64,000 nt of DNA from Protoeuglena noctilucae (lineage: Eukaryota). Each line of letters begins with the position of its first letter. Within the stretch, counting starts at the first letter, position 1. A program made the translations under genes and the position numbers. The notes below the pieces were generated by a model. The model was not told the origin of the DNA. It did not search any database and saw only the letters and a program-made list of their open reading frames with translations. The DNA lies in the NCBI GenBank assembly GCA_958009085.1, contig OY253678.1, positions 744,001 through 808,000 on the forward strand, in the 5' to 3' direction. This document shows positions 11,518 through 51,818 of the stretch, piece after piece.

Positions 11518-14306
11518 TCAGGCCACGTCGGCTCTCTGCGCGGGAGCGAAATCGCAGATGATCACAGTCAGGGAGCCAAGGGCATGGCAGACACAGAGGT
11601 CGCCTCGTGTACACACCCCTGTGACCCCTCACCGAGGACCGAAAGGAGAGGATGCGGGAGAAGATGCCCGACTTCTTGGAGACGCGGGGGCCCGAGCGGG
11701 GCGACGGTGCGTCGTCATTGGGCCCCGGCCCGTCGGTCGCCATGGCCTCTGCGGGTAACGAAGCAGGCGGGGCAGGGGTCAAGGCAGCAGGGTGGGGTGG
11801 CTGGGGACGCGCTGCGGTCGTCGCCCACGCACCCGTGTAGTCGTCGGAGTCGGTCGCACACACGGCCTGTCCCCCGTGCTGGAGTGAAACATGGGCTGCG
11901 GCAGACGGGACGCCCGGGGCGGGTCCCACTGCCTGGGCTGCCCGGCGCCCCGCCGCCATCTCCGCCGCCACCGCCGCTGCGACGTTTGCCGCCGCAACCG
12001 GTGGGACCATGGCCGTCGCCATGTCGTTGCTGCGGCCAACGAAGGATCGTCCGTGTGGGCCGGGTCGCAGGAGGGCATTACCCAGCCAGGCCATGCCATG
12101 GCTGGCACGCGCTCTCACTTGGTCGCGGCGGTGGCCGCCCAGTCCATGGAGTTGCGATGGAAACCCCTCCCGTCGTAGACGATGGGACCTGGCATGGGGC
12201 CCTGGGGACGGGGCGGGCGGGCAGGGGTTGCCGACACATGGTTCGATCCCCAGCAGTGTCACACACCCCGTCGCTGTCGCGTCACCTTGGGCGCAAACTG
12301 GGCGGCGGCCAGTGCCCGGAAGGCGAGGGCCTCCGCGGGGCTGGTGCCGTCGGACGAGACGTGGATGCTGACGCCGGTGGCGGGGGTGGGCGGGGCGGAC
12401 GAGCACGTGTGGGCGGGGTCGGACGCCGCAAGGGTCTGGATGTGCTGCGCCGACATGCGGGCGATGGGCATGTAGCCGGGGCTGACCCCGAGGGACGCGT
12501 ACGAGCCGTTGCTGTTGCGGGACACCATCTGCGAGTGCATGGCCGCGCGGAAGTCCGCGGGCCCGCCGACCGAGAGGGCGTCGGTGCTGAGGCCTCCGGC
12601 CGACACGCGGCGCACGAGGCTGTCCTGCGACGGCAGGGCCTGCCGCGTGGGGCGCATGCCGATGAGCTTACCGGACAGGATGCCCGCGGGGAGGAACAGG
12701 GAGGGGTCGAGCTCCCTGCGGGCGGGGCCGATCGCAGGCGTGGGCGTCGGCCGCGTTACACACGGCCGTGCGGGTGCCAAGGGACCAGCCGGGCGCAGCA
12801 GATCAAAGCATAGCTCGCTGCGACTTGCCTGATGCGCTCCGGATTCATGTTGTTGAGGATCATGGGGTGCGCCGTGAGCTGCATGGCCGTCGGGCGCCGC
12901 CGGGGGTCACGCTCCAGGCACTTGGCGATGAAGTCCACGGCGTCAGGCGTCATGGTGGGCGGGAAGGAGGCCGTCCCGGAGCAGACCTGCTGGATGACGG
13001 CGTCCTCCGAGTCCCTGCGAGGGCACATGGGCGCACGGGCGTGTGGGCGTCAGCGGGGCGCACGGACTTCGGCTCTTGCAGCCCAGCTGGGGAAGCACGG
13101 CGGGCCGCACCCGTCGAAGGGGGCCTGGCGGGTGAAGAGCTCGTAGGCGAGGACCCCGACGGCCCAGATGTCGACCTCCTTGCCGTAATCCTTGCGCTGC
13201 GGCCGAGGGACCTTCTCCCTCCGCACTGCCGGGTCCTCTGCGGGGCACGCGCGGGGCGGGGCCGCGTCAGGAACAGCGGCGGCAGCCGCGGGGCGCGCGG
13301 CGCGGCGCGGCGGGCCACGCGCACGCGCCTGGGTCGTTGAGCAGGAGCTCTGGGGCCATGAAGTGGAGCGTGCCGAGGCGCGTGATGGGCCGCTGCTTGG
13401 ATACGTCGATGGAGAAGCCGAAGTCGGAGAGGAGGATGTGGGAGGAGCGGAGGAGGACGTTCTCGGGCTTGATGTCGCGATGGACGATGTTGAGCTCGTG
13501 CATGTAGGCGAGGGTGAAGACCAGAGGGCCTATGACGTACTTGGTCACGGTGCCCTCGTCCCGGCGGATCTCCGGCATGCGCTTGTAGAGGTCGCTGCTG
13601 GGAGCGAGCTCGAGCAAGATAAAGAGGTAACATGCGTCGATAAAGGCGGCAAAGAAGGCCAAAATGTGAGGGTGGTGCACGCGCCCGTGGATGGCGATCT
13701 CCTGCATCACGCTGTCCTGCAGGGCCCGGTTGAGCCTGCGCATGTCGTACACCTTCAGCGCGCACTGCAGGCGGGGCGGGGGGCAGCAGTGTGCTGCGGT
13801 GTGGGGCGTGCAGGGCTCCATGGGTCACGTCACAGCTGGCCGGCGCGCGTCGTCGCGCCATGCACGCGCCGCGCACGCGAGCGTTGCACTGCAGCTGCCG
13901 CCCGCGTCGCGCCCTGCCTCCGCACCTGCATGTTGGTCTTGGAGTCCAGCACCCGGTACACGCTGCTGGCCAGGCCCGACCCGATCTTCTCCACGCGCAG
14001 GAACCGATGCAACTGCCACGTGTCATGATCCGCCATTTGCGGGGGGCACGCGGAGCTGCGGGCGACGCGAGGGAGACGCGACGATCGCGAGGTTCCATGG
14101 GGTGTCTGCGATCCCTGCGCCCCGCTGTGCACCAAGCAACCGGGGCGGGCCAGCCTCGGCGACGCAAGCATACACCGCGACGGCTCGAGGCGACAGACAG
14201 CCTCGCGGGCCGTCGGGGCGCGCGGGGCAGCCCGTCACCTCACGAACGGTAGCGCGAAGGGGGCCCCGGGGGCCTCCGCCTCCGATCCGACCTCCGCGTC
14301 CGCCAT
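11518..14306 (-). CDS. Aurora-like Ser/Thr protein kinase with long C-terminal tail
   Basis: Motifs GSGLASSVY, ALKVY, HRDIKPEN, DFG, GTLHFMAPE, VDIWAVGV and PRRRPTA. The N-terminal SACPPQM..W segment resembles green-algal Aurora-like kinases. The 3' end is tentative. Confidence 0.88.
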
Positions 14307-23100: not shown

Positions 23101-24600
23101 GGGCTCCGAGGCGCAGCACTCGTAGCATGTGAGGTGCCAGGACCCGGGTGTCGCCAGGAGCAGGAGGAAGCCCTGGCGGGCACCCTGGGTGGCGCGGGGC
23201 GCGTGGGCCCGGCAGTGGAGAAAGTGCGTGCACGCTGCCCAGACGCGGGGGTCGGCGGGCGAGGTGGCACCGCTGACGTAGCAGCCGACGAGGGGGGCAG
23301 AGAGAGCACGTGGGTCAGAGAGACGGAGGGGTAGGATGCGGCGGTGCTGGTCCATCGTGAGGACACCCGCGTCAGGCGACACGCGCTCGCCGCTGCGGGG
23401 GAGAGGAGGAGAAGGAGTTGAGAGCGTCGGGTCACAATGGCACACAGTGGGGTGTTCGTCGCGACGTGTGCAGTTGAATATGCACGGAAGAGCGTGTCGC
23501 TGCGACGATGCGGCAGTGAAGCGAGTGCATACACTGAGTAAATGCTATCCTTCTCGCCGATTGCGGGGCGAGGGACGCACCGTGTGGCGGCAACGAGCTC
23601 TCGGGTGAGTGCCACATCGCAGGTGCGCGGCGTGTAGATCTGCGTGATCTCCAAGGTCGCGCGAGGCACGGCGACGGCCCCGTCCGCCACCAGCTCGTCT
23701 CCCGCGGGGCTCGGCTGCAGCGACAGCGCCGCCGGCATGGCTTGGAAGGGGTGCAGGGGGCGTGCCGCGTCCACAGCCGCCCGCATCGCACGGAGCAGCG
23801 CCACCACCGTCGATGCCTGCGAGATCGGGGCACGGGGTGACGCTGCCGTGAACACCTAGTCAGCCAATCTATGAGCCGTGCGTGTCGGTGAGCGGCTGTA
23901 GGTTCGCAAGCCAGCAATCGAGCGTTTAGGCAGCGCTGGTGGCCATCAGCGTCCGCACCTGCGCGAGTTCCACCTGCGACGCCGTCCGCGCGACTTGCTG
24001 CCCGCGTCCCGGGCCCTGCTCAGCGCGCATCAGCAAGACCATCGGGGCGCCGACGTTGGCAGGGACCGTCTCCAGCCGCGCCGTTCCGCCCGCCCAGTCG
24101 CTGCCTTCACCACCTCCGAAACACGAGATCGCCAGCTGCACGGCCCCCAGCAGTCCAGGGCCGCTCACTCGGTAGGTGCCGCCTGCTGGCGTGGGGTCCC
24201 ACAGAAACCCTCTGCGAACACCCGGGAACCCCGTTATCGGCGCGCGTGGGTCACGCGATGCAATGTTGTGATGCGATATTGCCCATCAAGAGCGACAGCG
24301 GGGCGACGGGCGACGCGCGCGGGGACGGCCAGTCACGACTCGCCTGTAGGCTGGGAAACGGACCTCGTAGAGGCCCGCGGACGGCACAGTCGCGGCTGCG
24401 GAGCTCATCGCGTCTGCAAGAACCAATGGCCCGCGCCGCGCGTCCTGTGAGGCCCCCTGCTCGCCGCTCCCGGCGGCCTTCTCTCTCGCCAACGTCTCCT
24501 CTTCGGCAGGCCCAGGTCGCGCACCATCCTCGCCCGGGAAGTAAGCTGAGCGCGTCCCCGGAAGCGGGAGGCTGGCATCGCCACGTCTGCGGGCGTCCAT
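20165..24600 (-). CDS. STIL: STIL/SAS-5/Ana2-like centriole assembly protein
   Basis: STIL_N-like motifs VRFPAYR|GFLWDPTPAG and GVLTMDQHRRILPLRLSDPRALSAPLVGCYVSG...VWAACTHFL...CYEC. Short central coiled coil IALQAEQLREMRAQLSRLE. STAN-like end WPRIRV...DMSEDE...SMVIAMKYL. Confidence 0.72.
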
Positions 24601-24992
24601 GCCCGGCAAGCCCGGCGAATGCGCGGTGGGGCCCGCCCGGCAATTGTAAACTCAGGGGCTTCGCCCAGCGGCTACAACGAGGGAACAGAGGCAGTGCCGC
24701 ACGCAGGAGTCATACGGGAAGCTAGGCGACTGCGCGGATGGTGCGGTGCGCGCTCAGCGAGCTCCCCAGACCCGGCAACAGGGATAGCGTCTCTGCAGGC
24801 CGCCCGTCGCCGCGAGAGAGCCGCAACCTGAGCCGGGCCGCAGATGTGCTATAATCTTCATATAATGTCAATAGAACGCTTGGCGCCCGCAAACACTCGC
24901 ACGGTTGAGTCGGGCGGGGCTTTCCCGCCAGAAGAGGTCAAGTTCCGACCGAGGCGCCCCTCCCTGGCCGCAAAGCTCCGGTTGCTGTCGTG

Positions 24993-25000
24993 CTTATAAA
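24993..25000 (+). promoter_or_regulatory. TATA-like box (CTTATAAA) in the divergent STIL/PPAT intergenic region
   Basis: Sequence match about 250 nt upstream of the PPAT ATG in otherwise GC-rich DNA. Confidence 0.35.
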
Positions 25001-25242
25001 GGGTCGCAAAGCGTAGTCAAATATGGACGTTTGAGTCTGCTTTGCGGATGGCGATTCGCCTCCCTCCAAACCTATCCTCTCGGGAACTGTTCCGTGCAAT
25101 CTGCCGCCATCCTCGCTGTCCTTCTCTCCTGCCCGTTCTGCTGGGTTCCTCGAGGGGCGGCCTAGAGGCCAGGGGAGGCCGCCTGTGTGTCGCGAAACCC
25201 AGGGCTCACGTTGCCGGCCGTGATTGCCTGCTCGTCGCGGGG

Positions 25243-26766
25243 ATGGACAGCGCTGTGGCACCACCAACGACTGTCGTCTCGGCAGCCCTCGTGATTGCGT
25301 CCCTGGACCCTGCGGAGGTGCTGCAGCTGACCCGGGCGGCCTGTCGAAGGCGAGGAGCCCTTCCCTGGTGCGCGTGGCAAGCATCGAGACGCATTTATAA
25401 TGTCGCCGACATCATTCGCTCATACCCAGTTCGCAGATGCACCGAGACGCTCTCGGTAGTGCTCGTCGAGAGTGGCCCAGGGCCCGGCATCACCTCCGTC
25501 CGCACGCTCGCGCTCCTCGAGGCGGTCTTCGCAGCCGCGGCGCTCGAGAAACCACTCCTCGACGTCGTTCCAATCGTGCAGCGGGTGCGGGACGCGAGGG
25601 TGACGCCTTGCGGGAGGCGGTGGAGCAACTTGCTCACCTGCGCCCTCTCATCTAGGTCCCCTTCCTTTGCCTGGTCCGCAGAGTGACGCAGCCGCTTCGA
25701 GTGGTACCGTCCGGTTGCCTCGCGACTGTGCGGTGCTGTGGCACGCGCCCGGCGACGCTGCAGCTGAGGAGGTCTGCCGTGGCACATCGCGCGCATCTGA
25801 TGCCCACCCTCCTCGCCAGGTGCGCGCAGCTGTGAATGAGAGCACCGAGCCCTTGTTCGCTGCCGCAGCACGTGCGCACTTTCCAGGGCGACACGCTTAG
25901 CCGCTTTGAGTGCCACCGCCGGACAGCACCGCAACCGCAGGTCCATGCGTTGGCGCCTGTAAGTGACCCTTGCGAGCCTCTGCAAGTGCCAACGGAGCGG
26001 GTGCCCGAGGGTCCGATGCGAGGGAGCGCCGGCCCTTTCGCTGCGGAGCACGTGGCTGTCGGCGGCACGTTTGACCGCTTGCACGCCGGGCACCGTCTGC
26101 TGTTGGCGGCCACCGCCCTTCTCGCCACGCGCCGCGTGTTCGTGGGAGTCACGGGAGACAAGCTCCTCGCATCCAAGAAGTACGCCGAGCATCTTGAACC
26201 CTACGCGGCGCGCGAGGCGGCCGCTGTGAGGTACCTCCGAGGTGCGGGGCACGCATGGGGCGCTGCGGAGTTGGGATGGGCAGTGGGGCTTTGCTGGGTG
26301 GGACTAGCAGCGGGGCTCTGCGATATGTCTACTCACGTGTTCCATTCAATTGCGCTGCGGTCGCAGAGGTCAACCCGGACGTGGAGGTGGAGGCGGGGCC
26401 ACTGTTGGACCCCAAAGAGCCCACCGCTGCGGCCAAGCGGCCGGAGATGGGGGCCCTGGTGGTGTCCCGGGAGACGCTGCCCGGCGGGACTGAGATCAAC
26501 CGGCAGCGCGAGGGGTTCGGGTTCGCACCGCTCAGGCACGCGTGGTTGGCGGCGGTGTGCTGGCATACACTGTGTGTGTCAAGTCGCCCCTTGTTTGGCG
26601 CACTGCACTCTGCAACCTGACTGTGTCATCCTGATGCCGCCCGTGCTGCCCCTGTGTCCGCAGCATCGTGGTGGTGGGCCTGGTGGGATTCGACAGCGCC
26701 CTGGGCACCAAGCTGAGCTCCACCGAAATCCGACACCGCATCGCCTTAGGGCAGAACCCCGGGTAG
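25243..26766 (+). CDS. PPAT: Phosphopantetheine adenylyltransferase (eukaryotic CoaD-type, cytidylyltransferase fold)
   Basis: Motifs VAVGGTFDRLHAGHRLLL, VGVT, LVVSRETLPGG..IN and KLSSTEIR. Confidence 0.88.
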
Positions 26767-27041
26767 GGTTTCACCCGCATTTCAAACATTCGCAGACAGC
26801 GTATTTCCAACGTGTAGATGCACGCCCGCCCCGGGCCCCCTTTTCTGTGTTTTGCTGCCAAGGACAGACCAGACTACCGGCGCCATTGCCTTTCAAACCA
26901 TCGAAATTGCAATCCAGCGTGACAGCGCCCCAGCCCCCATGGGCCATACATTCTCGCACTCTCCACACAGCATCACCGCTGCTTACACCGCTGATACCGC
27001 TCCGCCCCACAAGTGACCCCTTCACTCATGCACCGTTCCCT

Positions 27042-30000
27042 TCACACTCGGACCCTGGGCGCGATGCCCATGGCCATGAGCTCCTGGAAGAGCAGCTTGC
27101 ATGCCCAGGGCATGTTGACGAACGCACACGGCGCCCCCTTGTGCTCCGGGTTGGGGCACTCGGGCGGCTCTCCGCCCCTCGGGTCGCTGTGGTCCACGAC
27201 CCGCCCCTCGGAGTAGCGCACCACGGGCTGGCGGGCGATGAGGCCGCACCGGGAGCAGACGGGCACGATGTACTTGTCCGAGACGTCGAACAGGCGCTCC
27301 TGGGCAGCGAGGGAGGAGAGGGAGGTGAGGGCGTGGAAGTCCAACAATCGATGTGAGGTGAGGGCGTTGGGAGGTAACAGGGCGGTTCATCGAAAGCAGA
27401 AGAAAGCACACACGAAGAAAGATGAAAGGACAGAGTTGCTAAGGGGTTCTCAGGTACAACAGGGGCAGGCCGCAAGCCCGCAGCCGGGTCTGACGAACAG
27501 CGCCCTGTCTGTCCACTTCGTCACTCGCCTTGAGGAACGCCGAGGCGCCGTGCGCGATGATGCAGTCGCGCTCCATCTCCCCGAACCGCAGCCCGCCCTC
27601 CCTGGCCCGTCCCTCCATGGGCTGCCTCGTGAGACGTTGGTAGGTCGCCTGGGCCCTCGAGTGAACCTTGTCGTCCACCATGTGCTTGAGGCGCTGGTAG
27701 TAGGTGGGGCCGAAGAAGACCATGTTGCGCAGGGGCTTGCCCGTGAAGCCGCTGCAGAGGACCTCCCAGCCGTACCGCTGGTAGCCCAGGCTGTGCAGCG
27801 CTTTGCTCACGTCGTGCACTGCGGGGGGGTCGGGCGGAGCATGGTGTGCTGGCCTGAGATGACTGGGATATTAAGATAGCGAACGCGCTGGAGAATGTGC
27901 TATGCCTCACAACACAGATGTGCCCTCTTTGATGCTAGGGGAAGCGTGCCGTGAGTCGCTGGCACTTCCGGCAGCTATCCATGAGTAACGTGCCATGCTT
28001 TCTGCTAGTAGCATCGCAGCCTCACCGGTGACGTCGGTGAAGGGCGTGGCGTCGGCCTCTCGGCCCTGCAGCGCTGCGACCTTGGAGATGAGGCACTCGA
28101 TCATGTGCCCGATGGTCATGCGCGAGGGGATGGCATGGGGGTTGATGATGAGGTCCGGGGTGATGCCCTCCTGGTTGAAGGGCATGTCCTCCTGCGTGTA
28201 CGTGATGCCGCACGTCCCCTTCTGCCCGTGACGCGACGCGAACTTGTCGCCCACTTGCGGGACCCGGACGCTGCGAACGCGGCACTTGGCGAAGCGCGCG
28301 CCCTCGTCATTGACTGCGGAGCGGAGAGCGGGGCGGGGCAAGAGAGTGAGGCGCTCTCGGGCATGACACAGCCCCGGTGTCGAGGGGCTGGCTGCTGACG
28401 ATGTGCGGGGCGCAGTTGCGGGCTGTGGCTGTGACGCTGCTGCGGTCGTGCCAGGCGCATCGTCTCACCCGTGAGCATGACCTGGTCGACGATGCCCCTC
28501 TCCGCGGCCCTCAGTTTCGTGCTCTTGTTGATCTTGTGGCCCACCGCCTCCGAGGGCGGCAGTCGCGCCGTCTTGCCCATGATTGTGTCGTCCCCCACCA
28601 CCGCCTCGCCCGGGGGCACGAAGCCATCGTCGTCCAACTGCGGCAGTGAGAGGGGTGTTGAGGGATGAAGTGAGACAGGAGAAGGCTGTTGACAGATGAG
28701 CGAAGAAAGGAGAGGGGTGTTGAGCAGTAAGCTGGGGAGTGAGAGAGAATGAGCGAGGACGAGGGCGTCACGCGCAGTGAAGCTCGCCATCTCATGCACC
28801 ACACATTGCCAACGAGCTATGAACTCACCTTGGCGTAGCTGGCCTCCTCCATCATGTTGACCGTGATGCGGGGGTCAGGTTTCTCGAACCTCTCTTCGTA
28901 CTGCGTCCTCCCGGCCGAGACCTCGAGCGCGTCGCGGTAGGTGCGGTAGAAGATGGAGCGGAAGAAGCCGCGGTCGATGCTGCTCTGATTCATCATCATG
29001 GAATCTTCCTGGTTATACCCGGAATAGCACGCGATGGCCACGACTGCGTTGTGGCCGGCTGGGAGCTCTCGGAATCGCAAAAAGTCCATCGACTTGGTGC
29101 TGGCCAGGGGCTTCTGGGGGTAGTACAGCACGTGGCCCTGCGAGGCGAGAGTACAAAGGTAAGTTGTAATCCGCATGGTGAATCGAACAGACACCATATC
29201 TGGAGAGGGAGGTGGCGAGCCACAGAAAGGGAACAAGTGCAAACACAGTCATCCTGCCTTGTATGCTCCGACAAGACAAGCACATTGCGTGGATGTGATG
29301 CGCTACACTGCGCTGCCCCCCTTAACCCACCTGCGTGTCCATGCGCAGTTGGTAGTTGCTGGCGTACACCCCGAGGGCCTGCTTGCCCATGGCGGACTGG
29401 TAGGTGTTCCGCGGGGATTGGTTGTGGTCGGGGAAGGGGATGATGGAGGCGCAGACGCCCAGGATCATGGCGGGGTGCACCTCGCAGTGCGTGTACGCAT
29501 CGGAGATGGCACGGCCGGCGTCCTCACGGGCCTTGCTGCGGGGAGGAAGGGAGAGGTCGATAAGCACGACATGGGTGAACGGGTGAGCTACTCGGGTCAG
29601 CGTCGGCAGGGGCGCAAGGGCGAGCCGTCACTCATCACTCATATCGACCAGATCGCGCTTCGCACTGTGCAATGCCCGCCAGGCACAAACCCCACGTCTC
29701 GTTGGCAATCAGATGTGACACAGCCATTTAACAAATTCCCACGCACCGGAGATCGTCGACGAACATGGCCACCATGCACGTCTCCTCTTCCTCGACGTCC
29801 ACCATCACGATGCCCTCTCGCGCCACGTCGCTCCAGCCGTACCCCGTCTCCTCGTAGTGCAGCAGCGCGCTGCGGGATAGGGCACGAGAGACAGTGCTGA
29901 TCGAGTAAAGATGCCAATCGAGAGGCGAGGCCGATCAACAGACGGCGCCGATCAAGCCATGATATCAGTCGGCGCTCGCACCCCACGCCCACGCTATTCA

Positions 30001-33000
30001 GAGCCCAGCCCGGCCACCGCACTACCACCGCACCGCCATCGCGCGTGTGTCTCCCTCACCTGATGTGCTTCTTCCTCAGCAGCAGCCGCTTGTCGCGCAA
30101 GACAAACAAGGGCCTCTGGCACCTCCCCGCCTCCGTGCTCATCCTCAGCTCCTGCAGCTCCGGGTCCAGCACCACCCCGACCTCCGAGCTGAGCCCCTCG
30201 GGCTCCCCTTGCGAGCGCAGCGCCTTGAGCGTACGCGCCAGCTGCGCCGGCTCCATGTGCACCCCCAGCCAGTTGCCATTCAAGAAGACCTTGTAACCCC
30301 GATCCACGATCTCCGTCGACGCCTCCTCCAGGCGGATGAGACCCTGGTCCTCCAAGAGCGTGCGTGTACTGGCAGAGTCGGTGCCCTTGGTCACGTGGCA
30401 CATCAGCGACAGGTTCTTCACCAGGCCGCACGAGTGGCCCTCGGGCGTCTCGGCGGGGCAGATGTAGCCCCACTGCGTGTTGTGCAGCTGACGGGGCTTG
30501 ACCTGCGAGGCGAATGGGTACAGGCGGAGTAATCAGGCGAAGTAGTAGCGTGCGTGATGCAGGGGCGGACGTCACGGCACGTCAGGGTGCAGCAGAAGCG
30601 AGGATCTGCGACCGGCCCCACCGGACAGTCCCCCGCCCCTCGCCTGCTTGGTGGTCCGGTCGACCCCCGAGTCGATGCGGCGCAGGTGGGAGACGGTGGA
30701 GGCGAACGTGAGGCGCTGGAGGGCCTGCGAGACCCCCTTGCGGATGCCCTCCTGCCCCTTGTCGCCCCAGTTGCCCGTCGCCACCGCGTACCTCAGGCCC
30801 CTCTCGATGAACGACTTGTCCAGAAACTCGGCGCGCACCGCCTGGTTCTTGTCCACCGCCTTCTGGATCTTGCGCTGCGGGGAGGGCCGGGGGGGGCTTT
30901 GTCAGACGGAGCGGGGTCGCACAGAGTGGGCGAGCGCGGCGGTGGGGGCGAGGCTGAGTCGCGGCGTGGCGCATGCCGCGGGACTCTGAATGAGATCGCA
31001 AGGAAGCATGTTGTGGAGCGATGCTAGGGGTGTCAGCGATGCTAGCGATGTGAGGCGATGCTAGCGGTGTGAAGTGATGCCAGTTGTGTCAGCCCTCACC
31101 CGCGTGTCCTTCATGAGCTTGACCCAGTGGGTGCGGAACACGCGCTCGAACAGGGGGCCGGCCAGGTCGACGCGCTTGTTGCCGTAGTGGTCGCGGTCGT
31201 CCTCCGGCTGCCGCCCCGTCATGACCTGCGAGGGCGGATACCAGAGGTTTGCTATCAGACCCGGGCCAACAGACAAGCGGGAGCCAACTGGCAGGCGTGT
31301 CACGCGCCCGTTGCCATCTCTGACCGTGCAGACGGGCAGACGGCAGCACACACGGCAGCACGCAGCCAGTCGCAGCCACTTGCATGCACCCGGCAACCAG
31401 ACGCACAGTGGCCAGCACGCAGCCTGCTCATATGCCACTGCGACTTGCCTGCAGCAGTCGATTGGTCATGTAGCCCAGGAAGAAGGCCTTCTTCGTCTCG
31501 TAGTCCTCCCCCGTGGTCACGTGCGGCAGCATCTCCTTCCGCAGCACGTCCGCCACCGCGGCCATCCGCTCGGCCTTCTCGGTGGCGTCGGCACGCTGCA
31601 GAGAAACACAGAACGCAAAGAGATGATTATAACTAACATGCATATGATTGGAACAGCCAGTGCCGTCGCTTGGAGTGTATCACTACCATAGCGATACACC
31701 CCGTCCCGATTACGCGCTTGATATGATCAAAAAAGTTCTGGCGCACGTGTTGCTGCATTCTCGCATCCTCGCCTGCATCCGCTTCCCCAGGTAGTCCAGG
31801 CACGCCTCCCGGGACTTAAGCTCCTCGGGCACCAGCTCAATGGACTTGCGCAGCAGGTCCTGCATGTCTGGATACTGGTCCAGCTGCGGAGGCGACAAGG
31901 GCCACACTTAGTGGGCTACAATGAGGCACCACCAGGTACCAGCAGGTGACCATCCAGCGGTGCTCGCCAACCACTCCCATCGCCGACCATCCAGGTCCAT
32001 CCGGCTGCAGCTGTCACCCCCTCCCATCATTGCCCATGCCCCCACAGCCCTCTCTGTAGACGCCACCCAACCCAGGCTCGCCTTGTACAGGATGTGCTTC
32101 ATGGCCTCCTCGTCCGTCTCGACGCCCAGCGCCCGGAACACGATGAACAGCGGCACGTCCTCGTTGATGTAAGGGATGCGCACGTACAGCGCGCCCTCCT
32201 GGTCGCCGGGGCCCCGCACCATGACGGCGCACGTGGACGTGTTGCGGGCAGAGTTCTCGACCTGAGACTTGATCTCGGCGAAGTAGGTGCAGCGGTCCAC
32301 GTTCTTCAGGAACACGTACACGCGGTTGGTAGCGAGGCGCTCCTGCAGGGATGAACAGGGAAGGCCACGTTTCAGGAATTGGGCCAGGATGAATGAGCAG
32401 GGGTTGGGCGAGGCCGAGCTGGCACGCCTCGTCCGCAGCGACTGCCCCCGTGCCGCGCGCACACACAGCCAGCGCGGGTGCCACGAGGTTCTCGTTGCCG
32501 GTAACAGCCCTCGCCTGCGCGATGAGGACCTTCTCTGACCCATTGACAACGAAGTAACCCCCAGCATCGAAGGGGCACTCTCCCTTGGCCGTGAGCTCGA
32601 CGTCCGAGCTGAGGGTGGTCAGGTGGCACCACTCGCACGACTTGAGCATCATGGGGATCTTGCCCAGCTCGTGCCAGCATGACACGCCCGGCAGGTCCGG
32701 CAGGCCCAGCTCCTGCTGCATCCGCACTTCCTCCTCCTCCTCCACGTTGTTCACCACCACCCACTCCTCCAAGCCCGTCTGCGAAACGATTGAAAGACCC
32801 TCTTAGCACACGACGCCCCCTCATGGTTTGCTGCGACCACCATCCACACTCCTGCAACGCAGCGGCAGTCGCTCTGCGCGCCCCCGCAAGGCCCCGCACC
32901 TCTTCGTTGACCCGCTTCACCCGCTCCTGGATGTTGATGGCCCCGTACAGCGTCGCGGCGTACGTCAAGTTGCGGAGGCGGGCGTCGCGAGGGAACATGG

Positions 33001-33725
33001 GGCCGCTCCGGGGGCCCTCCATCTCCCTATCCTCAAGCCACGGTCGCCTGGGAGGCAAAGGAGGCCGGGAATCGCGCGCGAGTCGCGGCGGAGACGTCTG
33101 CGCGATGGAAACAGCACTATGCTTCCCGCCGCCCCGCACCGCAGCCGGAGGTTGACGATCCGCAGCTCAAACTCCTTCTCCTCCGTCTCCATCTCATCGC
33201 CCGCGTTGTCGTACTGCTTTTGCGGCCAGACCCTGATGCGGTTGTTCTCCATAACGATCTGGGCCATCTGCAGGACAGACGGGAGCGTGCGAGGCGTGAG
33301 CGGGCCTGCCAGCGCGAGAATCCGCACGACCAGTGCGCGTCGTAACTCCTCATCTCCCGTGCGCGCGCGCTCACCCGGTACTTGAGGAAGTTCTCGAAGG
33401 ATTCGAGCTGCTGAGACACCAGCGAGCGCTCCCTGCAAACAAGGGCGGGGACGTCCTTCAAGGAGCCTCCATCGACTTTGGCTGTCAAAAAAGGGGTGAA
33501 GGATGACCGTTCCGGGGTCGAGCGAGCTGCAGGCCGCAAATCGCGCTCGGGAGCGCTGGAAGAACCACCCCCGCCCAGACGACCGCCCCGTCGCCGCGCG
33601 GGCGATAGCCTCGCCGCAGATTCTCGCCTGAAGTAAGCGGCGATTACGCCCCACGTGTCCTCCTGGGTGATCTCCCCCTCGGGGTCCATCCCGTCCAGCA
33701 GGCCCGCAGCGTCTGCGCTCGCCAT
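27042..33725 (-). CDS. RPB2: DNA-directed RNA polymerase II second-largest subunit (divergent), 18 exons
   Basis: [124 protein letters not shown] and [12 protein letters not shown]. Confidence 0.95.
31018..31080. repeat. Degenerate ~19-bp tandem repeat (GCGATGCTAG core x3) in an RPB2 intron
   Basis: gcgatgctag occurs at 31018, 31036 and 31055, followed by a decayed fourth copy. Confidence 0.7.
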
Positions 33726-34187
33726 GGCCGACCCTGCTGCTCCCCTGGCCGGCCGGCCCCGCTGCGCACCCCCGTCCCCCTCTCACGCGCCCCTTCTACC
33801 TCTGCCAACAAATGCAAGCGCCCTCGAACCCCGACCCGGGTGCCCCAGGCGGGAAGCAGCCAAGTGTGATTCGCTCTAGTTAGTCGTGCGCCGCTTGCGC
33901 TAGACTCGGACGTGAGGTTGCATGAAGCGCGAGATTGGCGCCGCGTGCGCCCGGGCATCCTTTCTGAGACGCTGGTTACGACGCTGCCAGCGCCCGCGGG
34001 TCTGACGTTGCCCAAAAGGCCCTGTTCAGATTGCCGCGTCGCCGCTACGCACGATGGATTGCTCTGCGTGCCGGGCGACGGTAACACGCGCCTGTCCCTC
34101 GACATAGCCGCCGTGGCCGCTTGCCAAGGGACGGGAACGTGAGAGGGGCGGCGCCCAGGACACCCGGGAGGGCCGCCACGTGAGAAG

Positions 34188-35274
34188 ATGTCAAGCAAGC
34201 TTTCTTCGAAGATCATGCAGCTGAAGTTCATGCAGCGGGCCAAGGAAAAGGTAAGAATATCTCGCCATCCCTTCGGTTGCGGTCGTGGAGCCGCTGCCCC
34301 GCGACCAGCCCGGCGACGCACGCGCGGCTCCCACGGTTGCGTGCAGAAAGAGTTGGAGCAGACGAGGAAAGAGCAGCTGCGGGCCCAGGTGGCCCAGTCG
34401 GCGGGGCAGGCCAGCGCAACAGGGCCCAGGTGCAGCAGCCCGCCGGGGCGGCTCCGCGGGGCAGAGGCGGGCGAATGTACGGTGCTGTTCGCGCACACAA
34501 ACAAGCCTACTGCTGCCCCCGCAGTGAGCAAGCGGCGGCGGCGACGCGGGAGCCCCTAGGCGCCACGCCCAGCACCGGGGAGGCCGTCAAGCCCCGCTGC
34601 GTGGTGGTGTACGAGTCCGACCCCCAGCCCGGGGCTTTCATGGGGCGCATGTCTTTCCAGTCATTCAACCGTGAGCAGCTGGCACGCCATCCACGCCACC
34701 AGACCCTCCCCCGGCAGCGACTCCATCCCTAGCCTGTCGTGCTGGCTTGGCTCCCAATCTGATGGAAGTGCCCCGCCGTCCGCAGCTGCTACGGAGCGAC
34801 TGGCGACGCAAATTGAGGCGGAGATCCGGGAGGCTGCGTCTGCTGCGAGGGCCCGCGACGACGCAGACGTTTCAGGTACGTGTGGATGGCGGGCGCTGAG
34901 GGGCCGGCGCCCGCGGGCTGCGTCATTGCAGCGACGTGAACCTCTTCGATTGGGGTCTCTGGGGCGCAGACGTGGCCATGGCGAGCACCCTGGGGCAGCA
35001 CCAGGGCCGGCGGGCTCGCGAGGCGGTGCTGAGTGCCGGGGACGCACTGCGTGGCGAGGCGAGCGGCAACGCGGGCCCGAAAGCGACGCCCGGCGAAGGA
35101 GGAAAGAGGCGGAAGGACAAGGGGGCGTCTGAGGGCGGCAGGCGTGGGTTCCAAGCTTTGGTGCGGGGAGGCGATTCCCAGGGCGGGGCGGGGCCAGGCG
35201 ACGCGAGGGCAGACGGCAAGAAGAAGGCGAAGAGGAAGGAAAGCGGCGGATACATGTCGTTGAGGTGCGTGTGA
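34188..35274 (+). CDS. MPP6: M-phase phosphoprotein 6-like RNA exosome cofactor
   Basis: LSSKIMQLKFMQRAKEK and CVVVYESDPQPGAFMGRMSFQSFN are the two MPP6 signature motifs. Confidence 0.8.
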
Positions 35275-35787
35275 GGCTGCGCGTGAGAGCTGTGAGATGG
35301 TGATAGGCGCGGCATGCCTGGGGGACGTGCGCCGGGCTCACATTTGGTGTCAGGACGCGCTCTCTCTGCTGCCCGCAGTTCGGGAGCGGCGCCTGTCCCG
35401 TTGCGGGAGCAGAAGCGGGCAAAGAGCTAGAAGAGGGTAGCGAAAGCACAGGCGCTTTAAGCCTTGCGTGTTTGCCATGGCCACATGCCCACCAAGCTGT
35501 TTCTTTTTCGCAGCTTTAGCTCTGGTTCGTAGTGGATGGCAGTCACGTGTATCTATGACATGGGTGCCTTCAAGAGCCAAGTGTCGCTTGGGGGTGTCTA
35601 AGCCGCGTGGGGGCGGCGGGGGGAGAGGGACAGGGTCCACGGGATCTGGACCGCGGTCGGGATCGCAAGGGACAGGATCCTGCTGCCTAGAACACCGACA
35701 ACGCCGCCGAGGGGGCGGGGCGCGCCGGGGGAGCTCGCTCCGCGTCCGAGGCTGGGGTTGCCCGGGAGGCGAGGACTGGGGGGCTCC

Positions 35788-37088
35788 TCAGTGGAAAGAC
35801 GCGTTGTTGACGATGTTGGAGGTGATGTTGTGGCCCAGGGGGTCGGACTGGTGGGCGACCAGGCCCGCGATGGGACCCTCCTGCGACGGCCAGGGCGAGG
35901 GCGACCCGTGAGCCCATGCGCTGCGAGCCAGTGCCCGGCGGCGTCGGCGGCCAAGGAAGCGCGACGGGTGTGCGACTGAGCGACTCACCCCCGTGAGCAT
36001 GGCCTGGACGGAGAACCCCACGAACGCGATCATGGCGAGGCGGCCGTTCTTGATCTCCTTGAGGGCCATGTCCTTGGAGTTCATCCCTGCCGGGTCGAAG
36101 GGGAACGAGTTGATCACCCCCGACATGCCCGTCTCCTTCCACCCCTCGTAGCGCTTCGTCTCGAGGAAGCCCATGATGACCGCCTGCGTTGGGCAGGGAC
36201 GTCATCAGTGACAACGGGGTGCACGAGGCAGGGCCGGGCGATGCGATGGGCTGCGCCTCGCGGAGGCGAGTGAGGGTACGAGGGGCGCACCTGGACGGCA
36301 ATCAGGGCCGGCAGGGGCGCGCCGTAGTCGCGGGCGCCCGCCTCGAACCACTTGGGCTCCACGCCGGTGACCTCGGTGAAGAGGATGCCGGCGACGGCCA
36401 TCATGGCGAAGCGAGCGTTCATGCGCTCGGCCTCAGCGTACCTGCAGGCGCGGGGCGGGGTGGCAAGGCTCAGGAAGGGAAATCGACCCATTGGGACGCT
36501 TCCCGGGCGCGGGGTCCCGGGCAGGCGTCCTCCCGGCCGGAAAACGACAGCGACAACACCGACGGGCCGGTCGCGGACGGCCCCCGACGCCCCAGGCCGC
36601 AGCCGCGGCGGTCGAATCCCGACACAGCTGGGCGACGCCCCCGAAGCGCCCCAAGCCCCCCGCGCCCTCTTCAGCGCTGGGCAATGGCCGCTCGATTCAC
36701 AATCAAGGGAGACAGGCTACTCGGCGCCCGCCCCCGGGCCCCCCCGCGTCGCCGGGCTCAGATACACCACCCCCTGATCCTGGCGCTCCCCGATCCGCCA
36801 ATCGGCGTCCCGGGCGGGCCAGGTGTCGGGACAGCCCGGAAACTCGGGACCGGAATGTCACTCCTCGCCTAGGAGAGGGCGCAATGGCCCCGGGACTCAC
36901 CACTTCAGGCGGTCGGGGTTGGAGCCCAGGCCGAGGGGGTCGAACCCGAAGTCGCCGGCGAGCGAGCCGTTCAGGTGGGCGGGGGCCTTGGTCCCCGGCA
37001 GCCACATCTGCCGATCGGCGGCCCGGGCCACGACCGCCCGCTTGGGGGCCGCCACGGGGGCGAAGGCGACGCGAGCGACGGCAGCCAT
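35788..37088 (-). CDS. LHCA9: Photosystem I light-harvesting chlorophyll a/b protein, Lhca9-type, 4 exons
   Basis: WLPG...[55 protein letters not shown] and [10 protein letters not shown]. The [16 protein letters not shown] loop matches green-algal Lhca9 as recalled. Confidence 0.9.
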
Positions 37089-37325
37089 GATGCACCCAAT
37101 GTCGATAAACACGTTCTCGACCGCAGCCGGGACGCCGAGAGCCCTTTATCGCTGCAGGGCCGGCTGACATCTGCCAGCCTAAGCGTGTCAGGGCCGTGGC
37201 GGGGCGCAGGGGGCGTTGGGTGCCGGATTCCATTGCCAAGCGACAGATCTCACGCTCTGCAGACACGGCTGGCGCTGAGGAGGCCATCGGCGCACACGGC
37301 GGCGGGCTTGTCACGTCCCAGCGCG

Positions 37326-40300: not shown

Positions 40301-40355
40301 GGCCAGGGACATGGTGCTGGAGCTCACGGGGGACGACATGGAGCTGTGGTACTGA
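37326..40355 (+). CDS. Plastid membrane-anchored RNI-like LRR protein (Arabidopsis EMB2004/At1g10510-like)
   Basis: Transit-like N-terminus, TM helix LLLGVPVVALLAGAFWWF and many LxLxxNxIGDxGA repeats. The C-terminus AIAQALKANP...ALDEARDMVLELT...WY resembles EMB2004 as recalled. Confidence 0.8.
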
Positions 40356-46909: not shown

Positions 46910-49900
46910 TCACTTCCGCTTGTACCGCGCCTTGCTCTTGAACTGCGCCTTGCCCTTGCCATGGCGCGCGATGACCTTCTTCTCCCGGTCTGCGGAAAGG
47001 GATTGGGGAGAGGGCAGGTCGCCATTCGCTGCGACGTGTTTCTCGACAAGACCTGCATGTACGAGGTGCGCATCAGGTATTGGAAACATCAAGAATACTT
47101 TCAAACATTCCCCACGTGCCGGCGCGACCTGGCTTCAGGCCACGCGCCCTCACCGGACAGCCCCGTCTTGGGGGCGCGGACTTCCTGGCTTCGCCCACCC
47201 CCCGCGTACACCTTGGCGGGGCGGGATACGCCCGCGGCTCTCTCGTCCCCGAACAAACCCTTGGTGGTCGCCGCTTTCTGCTCGACAGACGGTGGCTGGC
47301 GGATCGCGACAGACGGCCAAACGCACGCGCCACTTCACATCAAGCTGGCACGCACCGATGCATTCGAATCCCACGATCGCACCTTTTTCTTGCCCCCCGC
47401 CGCCTCGCCTCCCCGCATGCGCGCCGCCAGCTTGGCCGCCGCCCGCGGGTTGACCCCTTGCTCCAGCAGCTTACGTGCTGCGGACTTGAACCCTCGCGCT
47501 GACTTGGCCGAAGCCTCCATCTCCTTCTCAGACTCGCTCAGCTGAGAGTCATAAGTGAGGAAATCAGTGAGGGAAGATAAGCAAGGTATGCTTAAGACAA
47601 CTGCACGACTCTGCGCGACTCCCATGCCCACGCCACGCCGGTCAAAGGCTGGCTGGCAGCCTAGCCACCCCACGTTGACCCCACACACATACCTTGCGTC
47701 GCTTGACCCCCCCTGCCTCTTCCGCCGCCTTCTCCGCCGCCCTCTTCCTCTTCATCTCCGCCTTTGCTTCGTACTTGTCCGCCTTGGTCCGCCCTGCACC
47801 CTTGTCCTCACTCTCCGGGATCAACAGACCCTCGGACTCCTACGGGGGAACAATGACAGCACGAATGTGCAGTTGGGGCATGCCCCGTCACGGCAGCTAC
47901 CCTCGATCCCGCCAGGACCAGCGTGAGGGTCGGGGTGCGTAGTCAGTACGTGGTCGGTGCCGTGACGGCACTTGCTGAGACGCTCTGAGTGTCATTATGT
48001 CAGCCCATGTCTCACTGCCTCGTCTGCATGCCTAGCGAACGCACATCCCGCCCTTGGTGTGCTCACCGCCTTCATGACCACCTCCGTTGCCCAAACAGAC
48101 GCACATCCCACCCCTGATCTGCTCACCGCCTTCATGACCTTCTTCTTGGCCGCCTTGTCCCGGGTCGTCCGGAACCACTCGCGCTTGGGCCGGGCCTTGA
48201 TCTCCTGCTCATGCGTCAGCAGATTGTCGGCCCAGGATATCTCCATCTCCGCACGGCGCATGGAAGCTTCCTCCCGCTCCTGTGTTGAAATAAGGAGGTG
48301 CGTATGTGAGAGGAGGTGGGCGAGTGACTGGGGCGAAAGAGACGGGCTGCCACTGCACATCCGCAACTCCACGGGTCTTGCCAATCTGTGACAATCATCT
48401 ACAGCCAGCTACGTATGTTCATCTGCAGCACTGCTCGCCTCTGCAAAGATGTCCTGCACTTCCTCGGCCACCCCCTCGAGTCTTTTCTCCATTGCGGCAA
48501 TGGCGGCCCCAGGGATCACGCGCGTCTTGAGAGGCACGCCCTGCTGCGACTTGACGATCTGCAGAAAATGAGGGCAGCGGCCGAGGTCAAAGTGTTGGGA
48601 CTGAGCAGTAGCACCCCGTGTGCACGGCAGACCGCCACCAAGGCTTGCCCAAGCAAGGACGCGTACCGCGGGTGGCACGTGCTACGTTCTGCGCATCGCA
48701 CCTGCTTGAGAAGGGTACGGTCCGCGTCCCCCACGAACGTGACGGCGCGGCCGTTGCGCCCCGCGCGCGCCGTGCGTCCGATGCGGTGGAGGTAGGTGGC
48801 CAGGGTGCGTGGCGCTTCATAGTTGACGACCGTCTCGACGCCCAGGATGTCCAGCCCACGCGCCGCCACGTCCGTGCAGAGAAGGAACTTGGCGTCCCCA
48901 CGCCTGCGCAGACACGTGAGTCACCATGACATCAGGAATCGTCGTATCGCTGAGAGTGACAAATAGCCATGTAGGTGAGCCATCGCAAGTCAAGTCGTTG
49001 CCTGCCGACCGCTGCCGTCGCGCTCTTTCCCATCACAGCAATATTATGCCATATCTCACAGCACGAAAAACTCACCGGAACTTTTCCAGGGACTCGAGGC
49101 GCTCGGCCTGGGTCATGTTGCCGTGCAGCTCCGCCGCGGCCGGCAGCCCCAGCAGACCGAAGAGGACCTTGGTCCGGTGAGCCTGGCGCTTTGTCCCGCA
49201 GAACACGATGGTGCGGCCACCGGACAGCGACCGCCCGCAAAGGGCCAGGAGCGCCGCCTCCTTTGACGCACCCTGGCTGCCCTTCAGGCGCACAATCTGC
49301 GGCACGACGCGACGCCACGTGGACGGTGTTGATACGTGGGATTCGGCATGTGACACTGCCACGATAGTGTCAAAGCTTCACGCCCGTCCCCTTTACACTA
49401 CTGGCCGTGACGTCGTAACCCCGCCACGCTCACCTCTTGCGTCAGGTCCCTGGGCGCCCGGTTGGCCTGGTCGGCAGCCAGTCGCACGGGGCTGTGCAGC
49501 GACACGGCCGCGAGTCGCTCGACCTGCTCCGTCATGGTCGCGGAGAACAGGAGCGTCTGGCGCTTGCGGGGGCACAGTCGCACGATCTCCTTCACCTCAT
49601 CAAGGAAGCCCATCTCGAGCAGACGGTCAGCCTGGGGAGAAACGAGACGAAGAAAGAAAGGCTTCGCATCGCCGGCTGAGCGGTCGGCTGCTGGGGCATG
49701 ACAGCAAGGAGGTGCGAGCGGGCGTGACAGTCGGAGTGACCGCCGCAGTGGCCAATGAAGGCACAGTGGCTGACGGTGGATTCAATACAAAACGCCACTC
49801 GCCTCATCGAGGACCAGGACGGCGAGGTCGTCGAGGTCGACGGACTGGGAGTTCATGAGGAGATCGACGATGCGGCCCGGGGTGGCCACGACCGTCTCGG

Positions 49901-51818
49901 GGCGCGTGCGCATGGCAGCCTCCTGCTCTCGCAGACTCAGACCGCCCACCACGAGAGCGCAGCGAACGTCTGCGGAGACACGGGCGCGAGGGGCGGGGTG
50001 GGCTGGCGGAAGGCACTCGTGGCTTGCAAAGCACAGCTCCGCACCCCGGCGCATTCGGTCAGCCAAGATGCGCATGGGGCGTGGAGGCGCAGCAAGGGCC
50101 CTCGCCTGTGAACTGCGCGAGCTTCGACACCATGCTGTGGATCTGCACGGCCAGCTCGCGCGTGGGCGTGAGGACGAGGAGGTAGGTGGACGAGTGGCGA
50201 CGGTCGCGGTGGAGCAGGCGCTCTAGCACGGGCAGAGCGAACGCAGCGGTCTTGCCCGAGCCCGTCATGGCGCTTCCGCAGATATCACGGCCTGACATGG
50301 CCAGGGGGATGCACGCCGCTTGGATGGGCGTGGGGGACGTGTAGCCCAGGACTGCACACGCCTGCGGGGCACAGGACGCTTCGCATGGGTCGCATGCGAG
50401 CGCGAGACTCCTCAAGATGCCACTTGTCCTTGCTGCTATCCTGGCAAATGCAGCCCGTCGCCCATCGCGTGACACCAAAGCTCACCTTGACGAGCGGCCG
50501 GGAGAGGCCCAGGTCGGCGAAGCTCTTGGCGGTGAACTTGGTCCCATCGGGAGTGCGTGCAAAGAAGCCGCCTTTCTTGTCCCTGGCTGCCTGGCGGCCC
50601 TGCCCTGCGGTCCCCGCCGCCCCGTGCGATGCCCGCCGCTCTGCACCCATCTCCTCTTCGTCATCCGAATCGTCGTCCTCTTCCTCGTCCTCCTCATCGT
50701 CGTCACCGTCGGAGTCTCCTCCGTCGCTCTCGCCCTCCCCATCGCTCTCAGCTGCGTGGTCACCACCGCCGTCCTCGCTCAAAGGGTCCCCACGCGCCCC
50801 ATCTCCGCCCTCGTCGCTATTGCTCTCCGATTCCGATGCGTCGCTGTCATCTGCAGGCATCCAGACGTGCCTCGTGCATCTGATTGAGCCTACTCTACAC
50901 TGGTGCGCACCTCACGCGCATTCCCCCGCGCGCACCTGGCGGGCCTCGGACTGCAGCGCGTGCGCCTGACGCAGCCGCTGCGCCGCGCTTCTCGGCCTGC
51001 TTCCCGCTGCTCGCCGCACTGCCAGCCTTCTGTGCCCCACGCCCAGCCTTGGTCCCCTTAGCGCCCTTATGGTCCCCTGGCTTGGCCTTGTCACCACCCG
51101 TCGCTTTGCCGCGAGGCATATACGCCCTCCCCTCTTCCCTGCGCGAGCGAGGCACGCAGGAGTGACACAGCCGCACGAGCCGCCGCGCAGGCTGCTGTTC
51201 GCCTCCCCGCAAGCCCCAAATCCACCCCGGACGCACGCACCGCGCGCGTTCCAACTCGTCGTCGTCCTCAGAATCGTCATCATCCCCTCCGTCGCTCCCC
51301 GAACCGTCTAAAGACGACGCATCCTGCGAGCGCCAAGACCGTGCCGCACATTCTCCCGGAAAGGCCGAAAACACGCCGCGGGCCAACGAGGAGGTGCATG
51401 ACCAAACGCATCACTCCGTGGCGCTGCCATCTGGGCCCCCGGGTTCGTCCGCTGCGCGAGCGGGACGAGCCACTGGAGAGGCCGGCGGCTTGGCAATTTA
51501 TGCACCCCGTGCCCTCACGCACCTCCTCCTCCTCCTTCGCGCCGCGATTGGCTCTCCTCTCCTGCACCTTCCGCTTGATTCGTTCGTCCACAGACACGCC
51601 CCTGCCGGCACTCTCTCGCGCCTTCTTGATCGCCCCTGCACAGCACAGAGGCGCGCCTCTTGCGCCGCTGGGCGGTGTGGAGCAGCTGCCATGAACGGAA
51701 AGAACATGCTGAGCTGCGCCGCTGACGATTATTTCGCCGCCTCGCCTGTAAACTCCCAAGGAGCCTCCTGCGGCTCCTCTCCAAAGTCGAAGGTGAAGCT
51801 GGGGTCGAAGTCCTTCAT
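46910..51818 (-). CDS. DDX27: DEAD-box RNA helicase DDX27/Drs1 (60S ribosome biogenesis)
   Basis: [71 protein letters not shown] and terminal [10 protein letters not shown]. Confidence 0.92.
48039..48139. repeat. 41-bp direct repeat at 60-bp spacing spanning a DDX27 5' splice site
   Basis: acgcacatcccgcccttggtgtgctcaccgccttcatgacc (48039-48079) versus acgcacatcccacccctgatctgctcaccgccttcatgacc (48099-48139). Confidence 0.85.

Follow-up and report, generated by a model that had tools for sequence, protein, structure and literature searches.

The gene at 27042..33725 on the minus strand of a 64-kb stretch of Protoeuglena noctilucae DNA (contig OY253678.1, positions 744,001 to 808,000; this whole stretch of 64,000 nucleotides is the window, and all coordinates below refer to it), identified from its sequence as that of the second-largest subunit of RNA polymerase II (RPB2), starts seven of its 17 introns with GC instead of GT. 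The donors concerned are located at 33627, 32514, 32081, 31772, 31448, 30643 and 27528 (introns 1, 5, 6, 7, 8, 10 and 17), which is far more than a background frequency of 1.2% would yield (binomial p = 6e-10). Moreover, our results support that the habit is not special to RPB2: 14 of the 51 introns verified in eight genes of the window (27%, Wilson interval 17–41%) are GC-AG. Quite probably, they are U2-type introns of the usual kind, and the second intron position (+2) has often drifted from T to C at strong donors in this very GC-rich marine green alga. An earlier sequence-only reading of this DNA had placed GC donors at precisely these seven positions, and the rebuilt gene, with the backing of homology and RNA contigs, matches it exactly. 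That reading also gave the right contexts (AG/GCGAG or AG/GCAAG, which the rebuilt gene has six times and once, respectively, the slash marking the splice junction; the remaining ten introns start with GT) and two correct examples, VLIAQ/ERLAT for intron 5 and AFLK/ERLFD for intron 17.

The RPB2 model was assembled by hand from three reading frames of the minus strand. Its coding sequence amounts to 3657 nucleotides (nt), with a single, terminal stop codon and no internal stop, while intron lengths span 92–229 nt. The product aligns over its full length (~1150 columns) with 11 RPB2 homologs, at 48–71% identity, and Pfam Rpb2 domains 1, 2, 3, 4, 6 and 7 occur in the correct order on eight of the nine exons scanned; the remaining one (30644-30874) had no Pfam match, and the Rpb2_5-bearing exon was outside the nine scanned. 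Third codon positions are 93% GC, with C/(C+T) = 0.92. One relative, P0002 (69% identical; L001:5839-9348), encodes its RPB2 in one unbroken frame of 1170 codons, i.e., with no introns vs. 17 here, on a contig of 10.7 kb with 67–78% GC.

Evidence for splicing came from assembled metatranscriptome contigs rather than raw reads, which establish that a spliced form exists and dominates, while rare isoforms may escape them. Four marine metatranscriptome runs contain 25–46% of the words sampled from the gene region, as would be the case with exons alone, and four more runs, of unrecorded library type, contain all of them. The contigs of three RNA runs (X1, X2 and X3) and of one full-content run serving as a DNA control (X5) were aligned to 20501-40500. 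The gene, its introns and the support for each are as follows (bin depths are contig depths per interval, compared below with those predicted from the exon model).

27042..33725, minus strand: RPB2 gene, ATG at 33725, TGA at 27044-27042, 18 exons, 17 introns, 1218 codons
33433..33627, minus strand: intron 1, GC-AG, CAG/GCGAGA, 195 nt, phase 2; homology, X1 bin depth 7.55
33268..33374, minus strand: intron 2, GT-AG, CGG/GTGAGC, 107 nt; model, homology, bin depths
33048..33139, minus strand: intron 3, GT-AG, GCG/GTGCGG, 92 nt; model, homology, bin depths
32779..32899, minus strand: intron 4, GT-AG, GAG/GTGCGG, 121 nt; model, homology
32343..32514, minus strand: intron 5, GC-AG, CAG/GCGAGG, 172 nt; gapless in 11/11 homologs, not retained according to X1 and X2 depths
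31884..32081, minus strand: intron 6, GC-AG, AAG/GCGAGC, 198 nt; homology, X2 record 5 coordinates, bin depths
31596..31772, minus strand: intron 7, GC-AG, CAG/GCGAGG, 177 nt; homology, X2 record 5 coordinates, bin depths
31226..31448, minus strand: intron 8, GC-AG, CAG/GCAAGT, 223 nt; gapless in 11/11 homologs, X2 record 5, bin depths
30875..31099, minus strand: intron 9, GT-AG, CGG/GTGAGG, 225 nt; model, homology, RNA contigs
30503..30643, minus strand: intron 10, GC-AG, CAG/GCGAGG, 141 nt; gapless in 11/11 homologs, X2 record 5, bin depths
29870..30059, minus strand: intron 11, GT-AG, CAG/GTGAGG, 190 nt; model, homology, RNA contigs
29536..29746, minus strand: intron 12, GT-AG, CCG/GTGCGT, 211 nt; model, homology, RNA contigs
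29138..29330, minus strand: intron 13, GT-AG, CAG/GTGGGT, 193 nt; itemized RNA joint 29136 to 29330, cut +1
28638..28828, minus strand: intron 14, GT-AG, AAG/GTGAGT, 191 nt; itemized RNA joint
28314..28468, minus strand: intron 15, GT-AG, CGG/GTGAGA, 155 nt; itemized RNA joint
27819..28025, minus strand: intron 16, GT-AG, CCG/GTGAGG, 207 nt; itemized RNA joint
27300..27528, minus strand: intron 17, GC-AG, AAG/GCGAGT, 229 nt; RNA joint in X1, X2 and X3, Pfam continuity

At the protein level, the GC junctions of introns 1, 5, 8, 10 and 17 show no gap in any covering homolog among the 11 aligned (intron 1 lies in the N-terminal part missing from P0001 and P0002), and across intron 17 the Rpb2_7 profile continues directly, exon 17 ending at profile position 23 and exon 18 starting at 24. 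Introns 6 and 7 are gapless with respect to the closest homolog, P0001, while distant homologs differ by 1–3 residues in length beside them. When all possible placements were enumerated for the 14 GC junctions of the window, not one of the 14 had a GT-AG alternative yielding the same messenger RNA. Nearby GT donors, which would have overturned the sequence-only reading, thus do not explain the GC junctions, and spliced contigs cross those of RPB2.

Regarding RNA, the joint from 27298 to 27528 (intron 17; skip of 229 nt with three ambiguous letters) is present in X1, X2 and X3 but not in the DNA run X5, and of its four placements (CG..GG, GC..AG, GG..CA and AG..CC) only GC..AG is canonical-like. 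Since the itemized joints are 15 of 45 (and the itemized contig pieces 32 of 263), the other six RPB2 GC junctions were deduced from contig arithmetic together with bin depths, which agree to about 0.02 depth units. In a 3336-nt contig of X2 (record 5), the blocks 30060-30501 and 32082-32341 are found at contig positions 1805-2246 and 2863-3122, respectively, and the 615 nt between them are exactly the sum of exons 10, 9, 8 and 7. The depths predicted from the exon model are 7.11/4.56/4.00/4.57 in X2 (observed: 7.11/4.58/4.01/4.57) and 18.26/11.71/10.29/11.75/7.55 in X1 (observed: 18.2/11.7/10.3/11.7/7.55), the last value requiring that X1 record 2 crosses intron 1 and extends 44 nt into exon 1. 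The fit is poorer for the bin 32507-33173 (predicted: 17.18 in X1 and 3.19 in X2; observed: 18.3 and 3.62), an excess (~1.1 in X1 and ~0.4 in X2) that we put down to additional contigs. Altogether, these depths leave no room for retention of the RPB2 introns, as far as contigs can tell, from which rare variants would be lost. A loose contig end also lies at 32588, within RPB2 exon 5, in X1, X2 and X3; its 30 letters have no match in the window, and it could reflect contig chimerism or some alternative form not otherwise known.

GC-AG introns are present in four of the eight genes examined, and their occurrence in several genes makes them a property of the genome rather than of one gene, so that the lineage-level trait put forward by the sequence-only reading extends beyond RPB2. 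A first set of 49 introns, from seven genes, was verified by RNA contigs and/or by homology without gaps at the junction, whereas the set of 51 adds the two GT introns of the GCV_H gene (glycine-cleavage H-protein), accepted by Pfam profile continuity; all come from a single 64-kb window, and the verified genes are skewed towards conserved or expressed ones. Per gene, GC-AG introns amount to 7/17 in RPB2, 2/5 in a cytidylyltransferase-like gene, 4/11 in a DDX27-like helicase gene and 1/4 in a protein kinase gene (of which the three further verified introns are all GT), while an unknown plus-strand gene (0/5), LHCA (0/3) and LRR (0/4, all four backed by RNA) are devoid of GC donors. Within the 49-intron set, the share of RPB2 is not significantly different from that of the other six genes (7/17 vs. 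7/32; Fisher p = 0.19), although a one-sided binomial comparison with all seven other genes, GCV_H included (7/34), is borderline (p = 0.043).

25243-26766, plus strand: cytidylyltransferase-like gene (Pfam), convergent with RPB2, five introns
25350..25436, plus strand: first intron of the cytidylyltransferase-like gene, GC-AG, AAG/GCGAGG, 87 nt; X1 and X3 contig pieces end at 25347 (leftmost placement)
26536..26663, plus strand: last intron of the cytidylyltransferase-like gene, GC-AG, atypical, CAG/GCACGC, 128 nt; a contig piece starts at 26661 (leftmost), X1 bin implies 539 nt covered
51818-46910, minus strand: DDX27/RH28-like helicase gene, four GC-AG and seven GT introns verified
51636..51745, minus strand: DDX27-like intron, GC-AG, CAG/GCGAGG; gapless across WEF/GA in ten covering homologs
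49970..50105, minus strand: DDX27-like intron, GC-AG, CAG/GCGAGG; gapless across KLAQFT/DVR in 12/12 homologs
49632..49802, minus strand: DDX27-like intron, GC-AG, GAG/GCGAGT, splitting the DEAD box (LDE/AD); gapless in 12/12 homologs
48280..48438, minus strand: DDX27-like intron, GC-AG, GAG/GCGAGC; gapless before EREE..AEME in 12/12 homologs
12716..12828, minus strand: protein kinase intron, GC-AG, CAG/GCAAGT; no gap with respect to P0346, P0354 and P0402

In the cytidylyltransferase-like gene, the 755 nt of contig between 25347 and 26661 fit the five-intron model exactly. At the kinase junction 12828, two homolog rows stop before it and P0353 has an insert just upstream. A second kinase intron, 13328-13238 on the minus strand (CAG/GCGCGT), is probably GC-AG as well, judging from homology, and was excluded from the tally; together with CAG/GCACGC (26536), it looks like the GC twin of the common GTGCG donor class of this genome. 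Three DDX27-like introns (51505, 50983 and 48126) were also left uncounted, as they fall in poorly conserved regions. Our own dynamic-programming gene finder, trained on RPB2, recovered 17/17 RPB2 introns, but it proposed too many weak GC donors and antisense 'genes'; among its GC introns, 13684-13598 was shown to be false by homologs. Its unverified calls (e.g., 50983, 11953, 42916, 16842, 16606, 46198, 46504, 20806, 22389, 57916 and 62162) were therefore not counted. These include strong predictions in two regions with no Pfam match, i.e., 16244-16850 on the minus strand (AAG/GCAAGT at 16842 and GAG/GCAAGG at 16606) and 46090-46818 on the plus strand (GAG/GCGAGC at 46198 and AGG/GCGAGT at 46504).

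The GC donors have a much stricter context than the GT donors of the same genes (49-intron set). An exonic AG precedes 14/14 GC donors vs. 18/35 GT donors (Fisher p = 0.0008), A occupies the fourth intron position (+4) in 13/14 vs. 18/35 (p = 0.008), and the full AG/GYRAG motif is found in 13/14 vs. 5/35 (p = 4e-7). Viewed from the other side, +2 is C in 13 of the 18 sites inside AG/GYRAG (72%) vs. 1 of the 31 sites outside it (3%). In intron interiors, C/(C+T) is 0.61, and the GC content of the window is 62–72%. GC and GT introns are similar in mean length (160 vs. 143 nt) and GC content (63% vs. 66%). All 49 acceptors are AG, and none of the 49 introns carries a U12-like donor or branch motif (RTATCC, GCATCC and TCCTTRAY; GCATCC, that of U12-type GC-AG introns, is given by PMC1557818). 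On the basis of these motifs, the GC introns would belong to the U2-type GC-AG class. The compensation by a strict exonic AG proposed by the sequence-only reading is borne out by the 14 GC donors, except that AG does not act alone, since A at +4 is enriched too. In contrast, nothing shows the 'altered' recognition of the 5' splice site that was proposed along with it, and the need for a full consensus argues that C at +2 is still a mismatch. An Rfam scan of the window for small nuclear RNA (snRNA) genes returned no family.

How could so many donors have come to carry a C? Because the GC donors are nearly confined to the full consensus, C at +2 still costs the site something. If the 5' end of the U1 snRNA is the standard one, it would still see this C as a mismatch, and a GC donor would function only where all other positions pair well, i.e., in AG/GC(A or G)AG. 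At such strong sites, the choice between T and C would be close to neutral, and C would be fixed by the same bias that drives synonymous sites to C, while selection would hold T at the weaker donors (GTGCG, GTGGG or those lacking an exonic AG). This would be the compensation described for animals and plants, where GC-AG introns are rare (PMC1557818), taken much further by base composition. RPB2 stands out only because it has many introns and a sequence conserved enough to fix each junction. Several observations weigh against this explanation. GC content alone fails to predict the GC-AG share, which is low in two green algae of similar GC, Micromonas RCC299 and Chlorella sp., so that a further lineage-specific factor may act here; likewise, in the annotation of Chlorella sorokiniana (64% GC), major non-canonical sites number 7090 out of 124,435 (supplement files 7 and 8 of PMC6310983). 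Furthermore, two GC donors are without the GCRAG core (CAG/GCACGC at 26536 and the probable CAG/GCGCGT at 13328), so that the compensation is not absolute, and the three genes without any GC donor (12 introns) allow for heterogeneity between genes. Finally, the sample consists of 51 introns from one window, in genes biased towards conserved or expressed ones.

The low shares at similar GC (2.7–7.7% in Micromonas RCC299 and Chlorella sp. vs. 27% here; PMC3033335) and the two donors without the GCRAG core would be accounted for if the 5' splice site were read differently in this organism, be it through a variant 5' end of U1, a modified base or an altered protein of the U1 small nuclear ribonucleoprotein (snRNP) or PRP8 that accepts C at +2; base modifications or U1 snRNP proteins have indeed been proposed by the authors of PMC3033335. 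Yet, a machinery that reads C as readily as T would need no extra complementarity, while AG/GYRAG characterizes 13/14 GC donors vs. 5/35 GT donors, and the same paper describes a canonical U1 5' end for both M. pusilla and Aureococcus. We thus consider such an altered reader unlikely, and the same holds for the milder version, in which a lineage-specific change (in the U1 5' end, an snRNA modification or a U1C/PRP8-type protein) merely lowers the cost of C at +2. If true, a lineage-specific change of the spliceosome would explain a share several-fold above that of the equally GC-rich Chlorella and Micromonas RCC299, and the 'enigma' of 2011 would then become tractable in an intron-rich alga.

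The remaining explanations have much less in their favour. Introner-type mobile elements carrying or creating a GC donor, as described in some dinoflagellates, might have been inserted recently: GC-AG prevails in the introner-derived introns of dinoflagellates (review, PMC11282704) and, since the RPB2 of a 69%-identical relative (L001) is intronless, a good part of the 17 introns might have been gained within this lineage. Against this, an all-against-all BLAST of the 49 introns matched no GC introns to each other and recovered just one stretch of 26 nt shared by a pair of GT introns, a search against the whole window found a second match for one intron only, and GC and GT introns are alike in length and GC content; with no multi-copy family among the GC introns within the window, we deem this origin very improbable. 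We grant no better chance to a gene-specific regulation, in which weak sites would be kept (e.g., in RPB2) for intron retention or alternative splicing, the latter having been linked to GC donors in animals (PMC2490688). The borderline excess of RPB2 and the lack of GC donors in the highly expressed LHCA gene point in that direction, but the Fisher test does not separate RPB2 from the rest, the DDX27-like and cytidylyltransferase-like genes show similar shares, and the RNA contigs are spliced, with bin depths that leave no room for retention, even if contigs drop rare variants. As for an artefact, whether the junctions are misplaced, the assembly is faulty or GT donors close by are the ones really used, the over-calling of weak GC donors by our gene finder (including the false call at 13684-13598) and the restriction of the itemized RNA joints to 15 of 45 call for caution. 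However, the DNA run X5 covers the stretch unbroken and without a single differing letter, all three RNA runs contain the intron 17 joint itself, the other junctions fit to ~0.02 depth units and no alternative placement gives GT-AG, which makes an artefact scarcely credible.

Some observations concern the surroundings of RPB2. X1 record 1 (24989-29136) joins the plus-strand cytidylyltransferase-like gene to the 3' exons of the minus-strand RPB2, and the stop codons of the two genes (26764-26766 and 27042-27044, respectively) are 275 nt apart; this bridge means either overlapping 3' ends or an assembly bridge. The region 20501-24500 has a low coding score, 69–72% GC and a thin cover of X1 RNA contigs (depth 1.4–3.1). 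X5 also shows two long skips (21020 to 26147 and 21885 to 36389), of which the sides are just 20–22 letters long and which are probably short repeats, not rearrangements. On the other side of RPB2, the LHCA-type gene (35788-37088, minus strand) has three GT-AG introns, one of 459 nt, and by far the top summed contig depth of the metatranscriptomes (up to ~3000 in X1), a depth summed over all aligned contigs and hence unable to rank expression.

The genes of the window include LHCA, CP12 and the glycine-cleavage H-protein. The best named matches of LHCA are Dasycladales and Chlamydomonas (80–82%), and the DDX27 tree places its gene inside a chlorophyte clade with 100% support, against streptophytes. 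From these two genes, we conclude that the host is probably a marine, very GC-rich chlorophyte, which agrees with the guess of the sequence-only reading. A haptophyte host such as E. huxleyi was rejected, LHCA and DDX27 being of green type with no haptophyte match appearing. In the RPB2 tree, the gene and two relatives sit on a stem of ~0.93 substitutions/site outside all other green-algal RPB2s, beside dinoflagellates, a position that comes with a long-branch warning, so that this tree was not used for placement. The long stem would reflect either an unusually fast-evolving RNA polymerase II subunit or a composition effect.

For annotation, gene predictors that assume GT would mis-model about one quarter of the introns in this genome, and seven of the 17 introns of RPB2 would be missed or shifted, so that annotation must allow GC-AG introns; this warning is the main use of our results. 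From an evolutionary perspective, T or C at +2 of a full-consensus donor nearly behaves as a silent site (in a small sample), and the pattern of 13/18 vs. 1/31 fits a bias of mutation or fixation at a mismatch that is tolerated, which argues against a re-tuned spliceosome.

Abundant GC-AG introns have precedents in picoplankton. Iwata and Gotoh (2011; PMC3033335) report 39.6% GC-AG introns in Aureococcus anophagefferens, 22.2% in Micromonas pusilla CCMP1545, 7.7% in Chlorella sp. and 2.7% in Micromonas RCC299 (64.1% GC), with fractions rising in the most GC-rich genomes; the sequence-only reading had surmised that small GC-rich chlorophytes might already be known for this, and the M. pusilla and Chlorella sp. 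values prove it right. That paper describes the U1 5' end of M. pusilla and Aureococcus as identical to the consensus (AUACUUACCUG) and calls the origin of abundant GC-AG introns an enigma, leaving the cause open where it discusses them. Our window resembles these genomes in its high GC content (65.9–69.5% there vs. 62–72% here) and in the large minority of U2-type introns that start with GC and end with AG, one of the published cases being also a marine chlorophyte. It departs from them in that its genes are intron-rich (17, at least 11 and 5 introns) and in that our share comes from 51 introns, not from a genome. The organism itself is distinct from M. pusilla (496 major non-canonical sites out of 8831 in the annotation of the latter; PMC6310983, supplement): on exon 11, its RPB2 is ~51–53% identical to Mamiellales-type matches. 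The context dependence at +2 (13/18 vs. 1/31) goes beyond that paper.

Outside of green algae, Feldmesser et al. (2014; PMC4028052) found GC-AG at 56% of 241 curated junctions of Emiliania huxleyi and ascribed it to a GC content of 65%. As here, it is a GC-rich marine alga in which transcript mapping requires GC donors, acceptors are canonical and predictors assuming GT mis-model genes, whereas it is a haptophyte with a share of 56%, vs. a probable chlorophyte with ~27%. The high intron retention reported there was not seen in our contigs, which could miss it. In pelagophytes, predicted values reach 14–17% in Aureococcus strains, ~14% in Pelagomonas calceolata and 0.32% in Aureoumbra (bioRxiv 10.1101/2024.10.30.620910), following genome GC within an algal group, to which our case is akin; unlike our alga, however, these are stramenopiles with 0.1–0.9 introns per gene. 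The GC-AG introns of animals and plants, at ~0.4–1.2% (Sheth et al. 2006, PMC1557818; Pucker and Brockington 2018, PMC6310983), share with ours the acceptor, the lack of U12 signals and a donor that is otherwise closer to the U1-complementary consensus than GT donors are (PMC1557818). Yet, they are 20- to 70-fold less frequent, and their consensus is AG/GCAAGT, while AG/GCGAG, in line with the GTGAG donors of this genome, is the consensus here.

Altogether, with a GC content of 62–72% and GC-AG at 14/51 introns, in four of eight genes, the window falls among GC-rich algae with abundant GC-AG introns, when these are defined by ~64% GC or more and a GC-AG share of at least 10% in several genes. 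We found no literature report of such abundance in a further green lineage, though one might exist in this organism's own genome paper. The phenomenon itself is known since 2011–2014 from other GC-rich algae; what is new is one more lineage, an intron-rich one, along with a clear context rule and a share that equals or exceeds the highest value in print for green algae.

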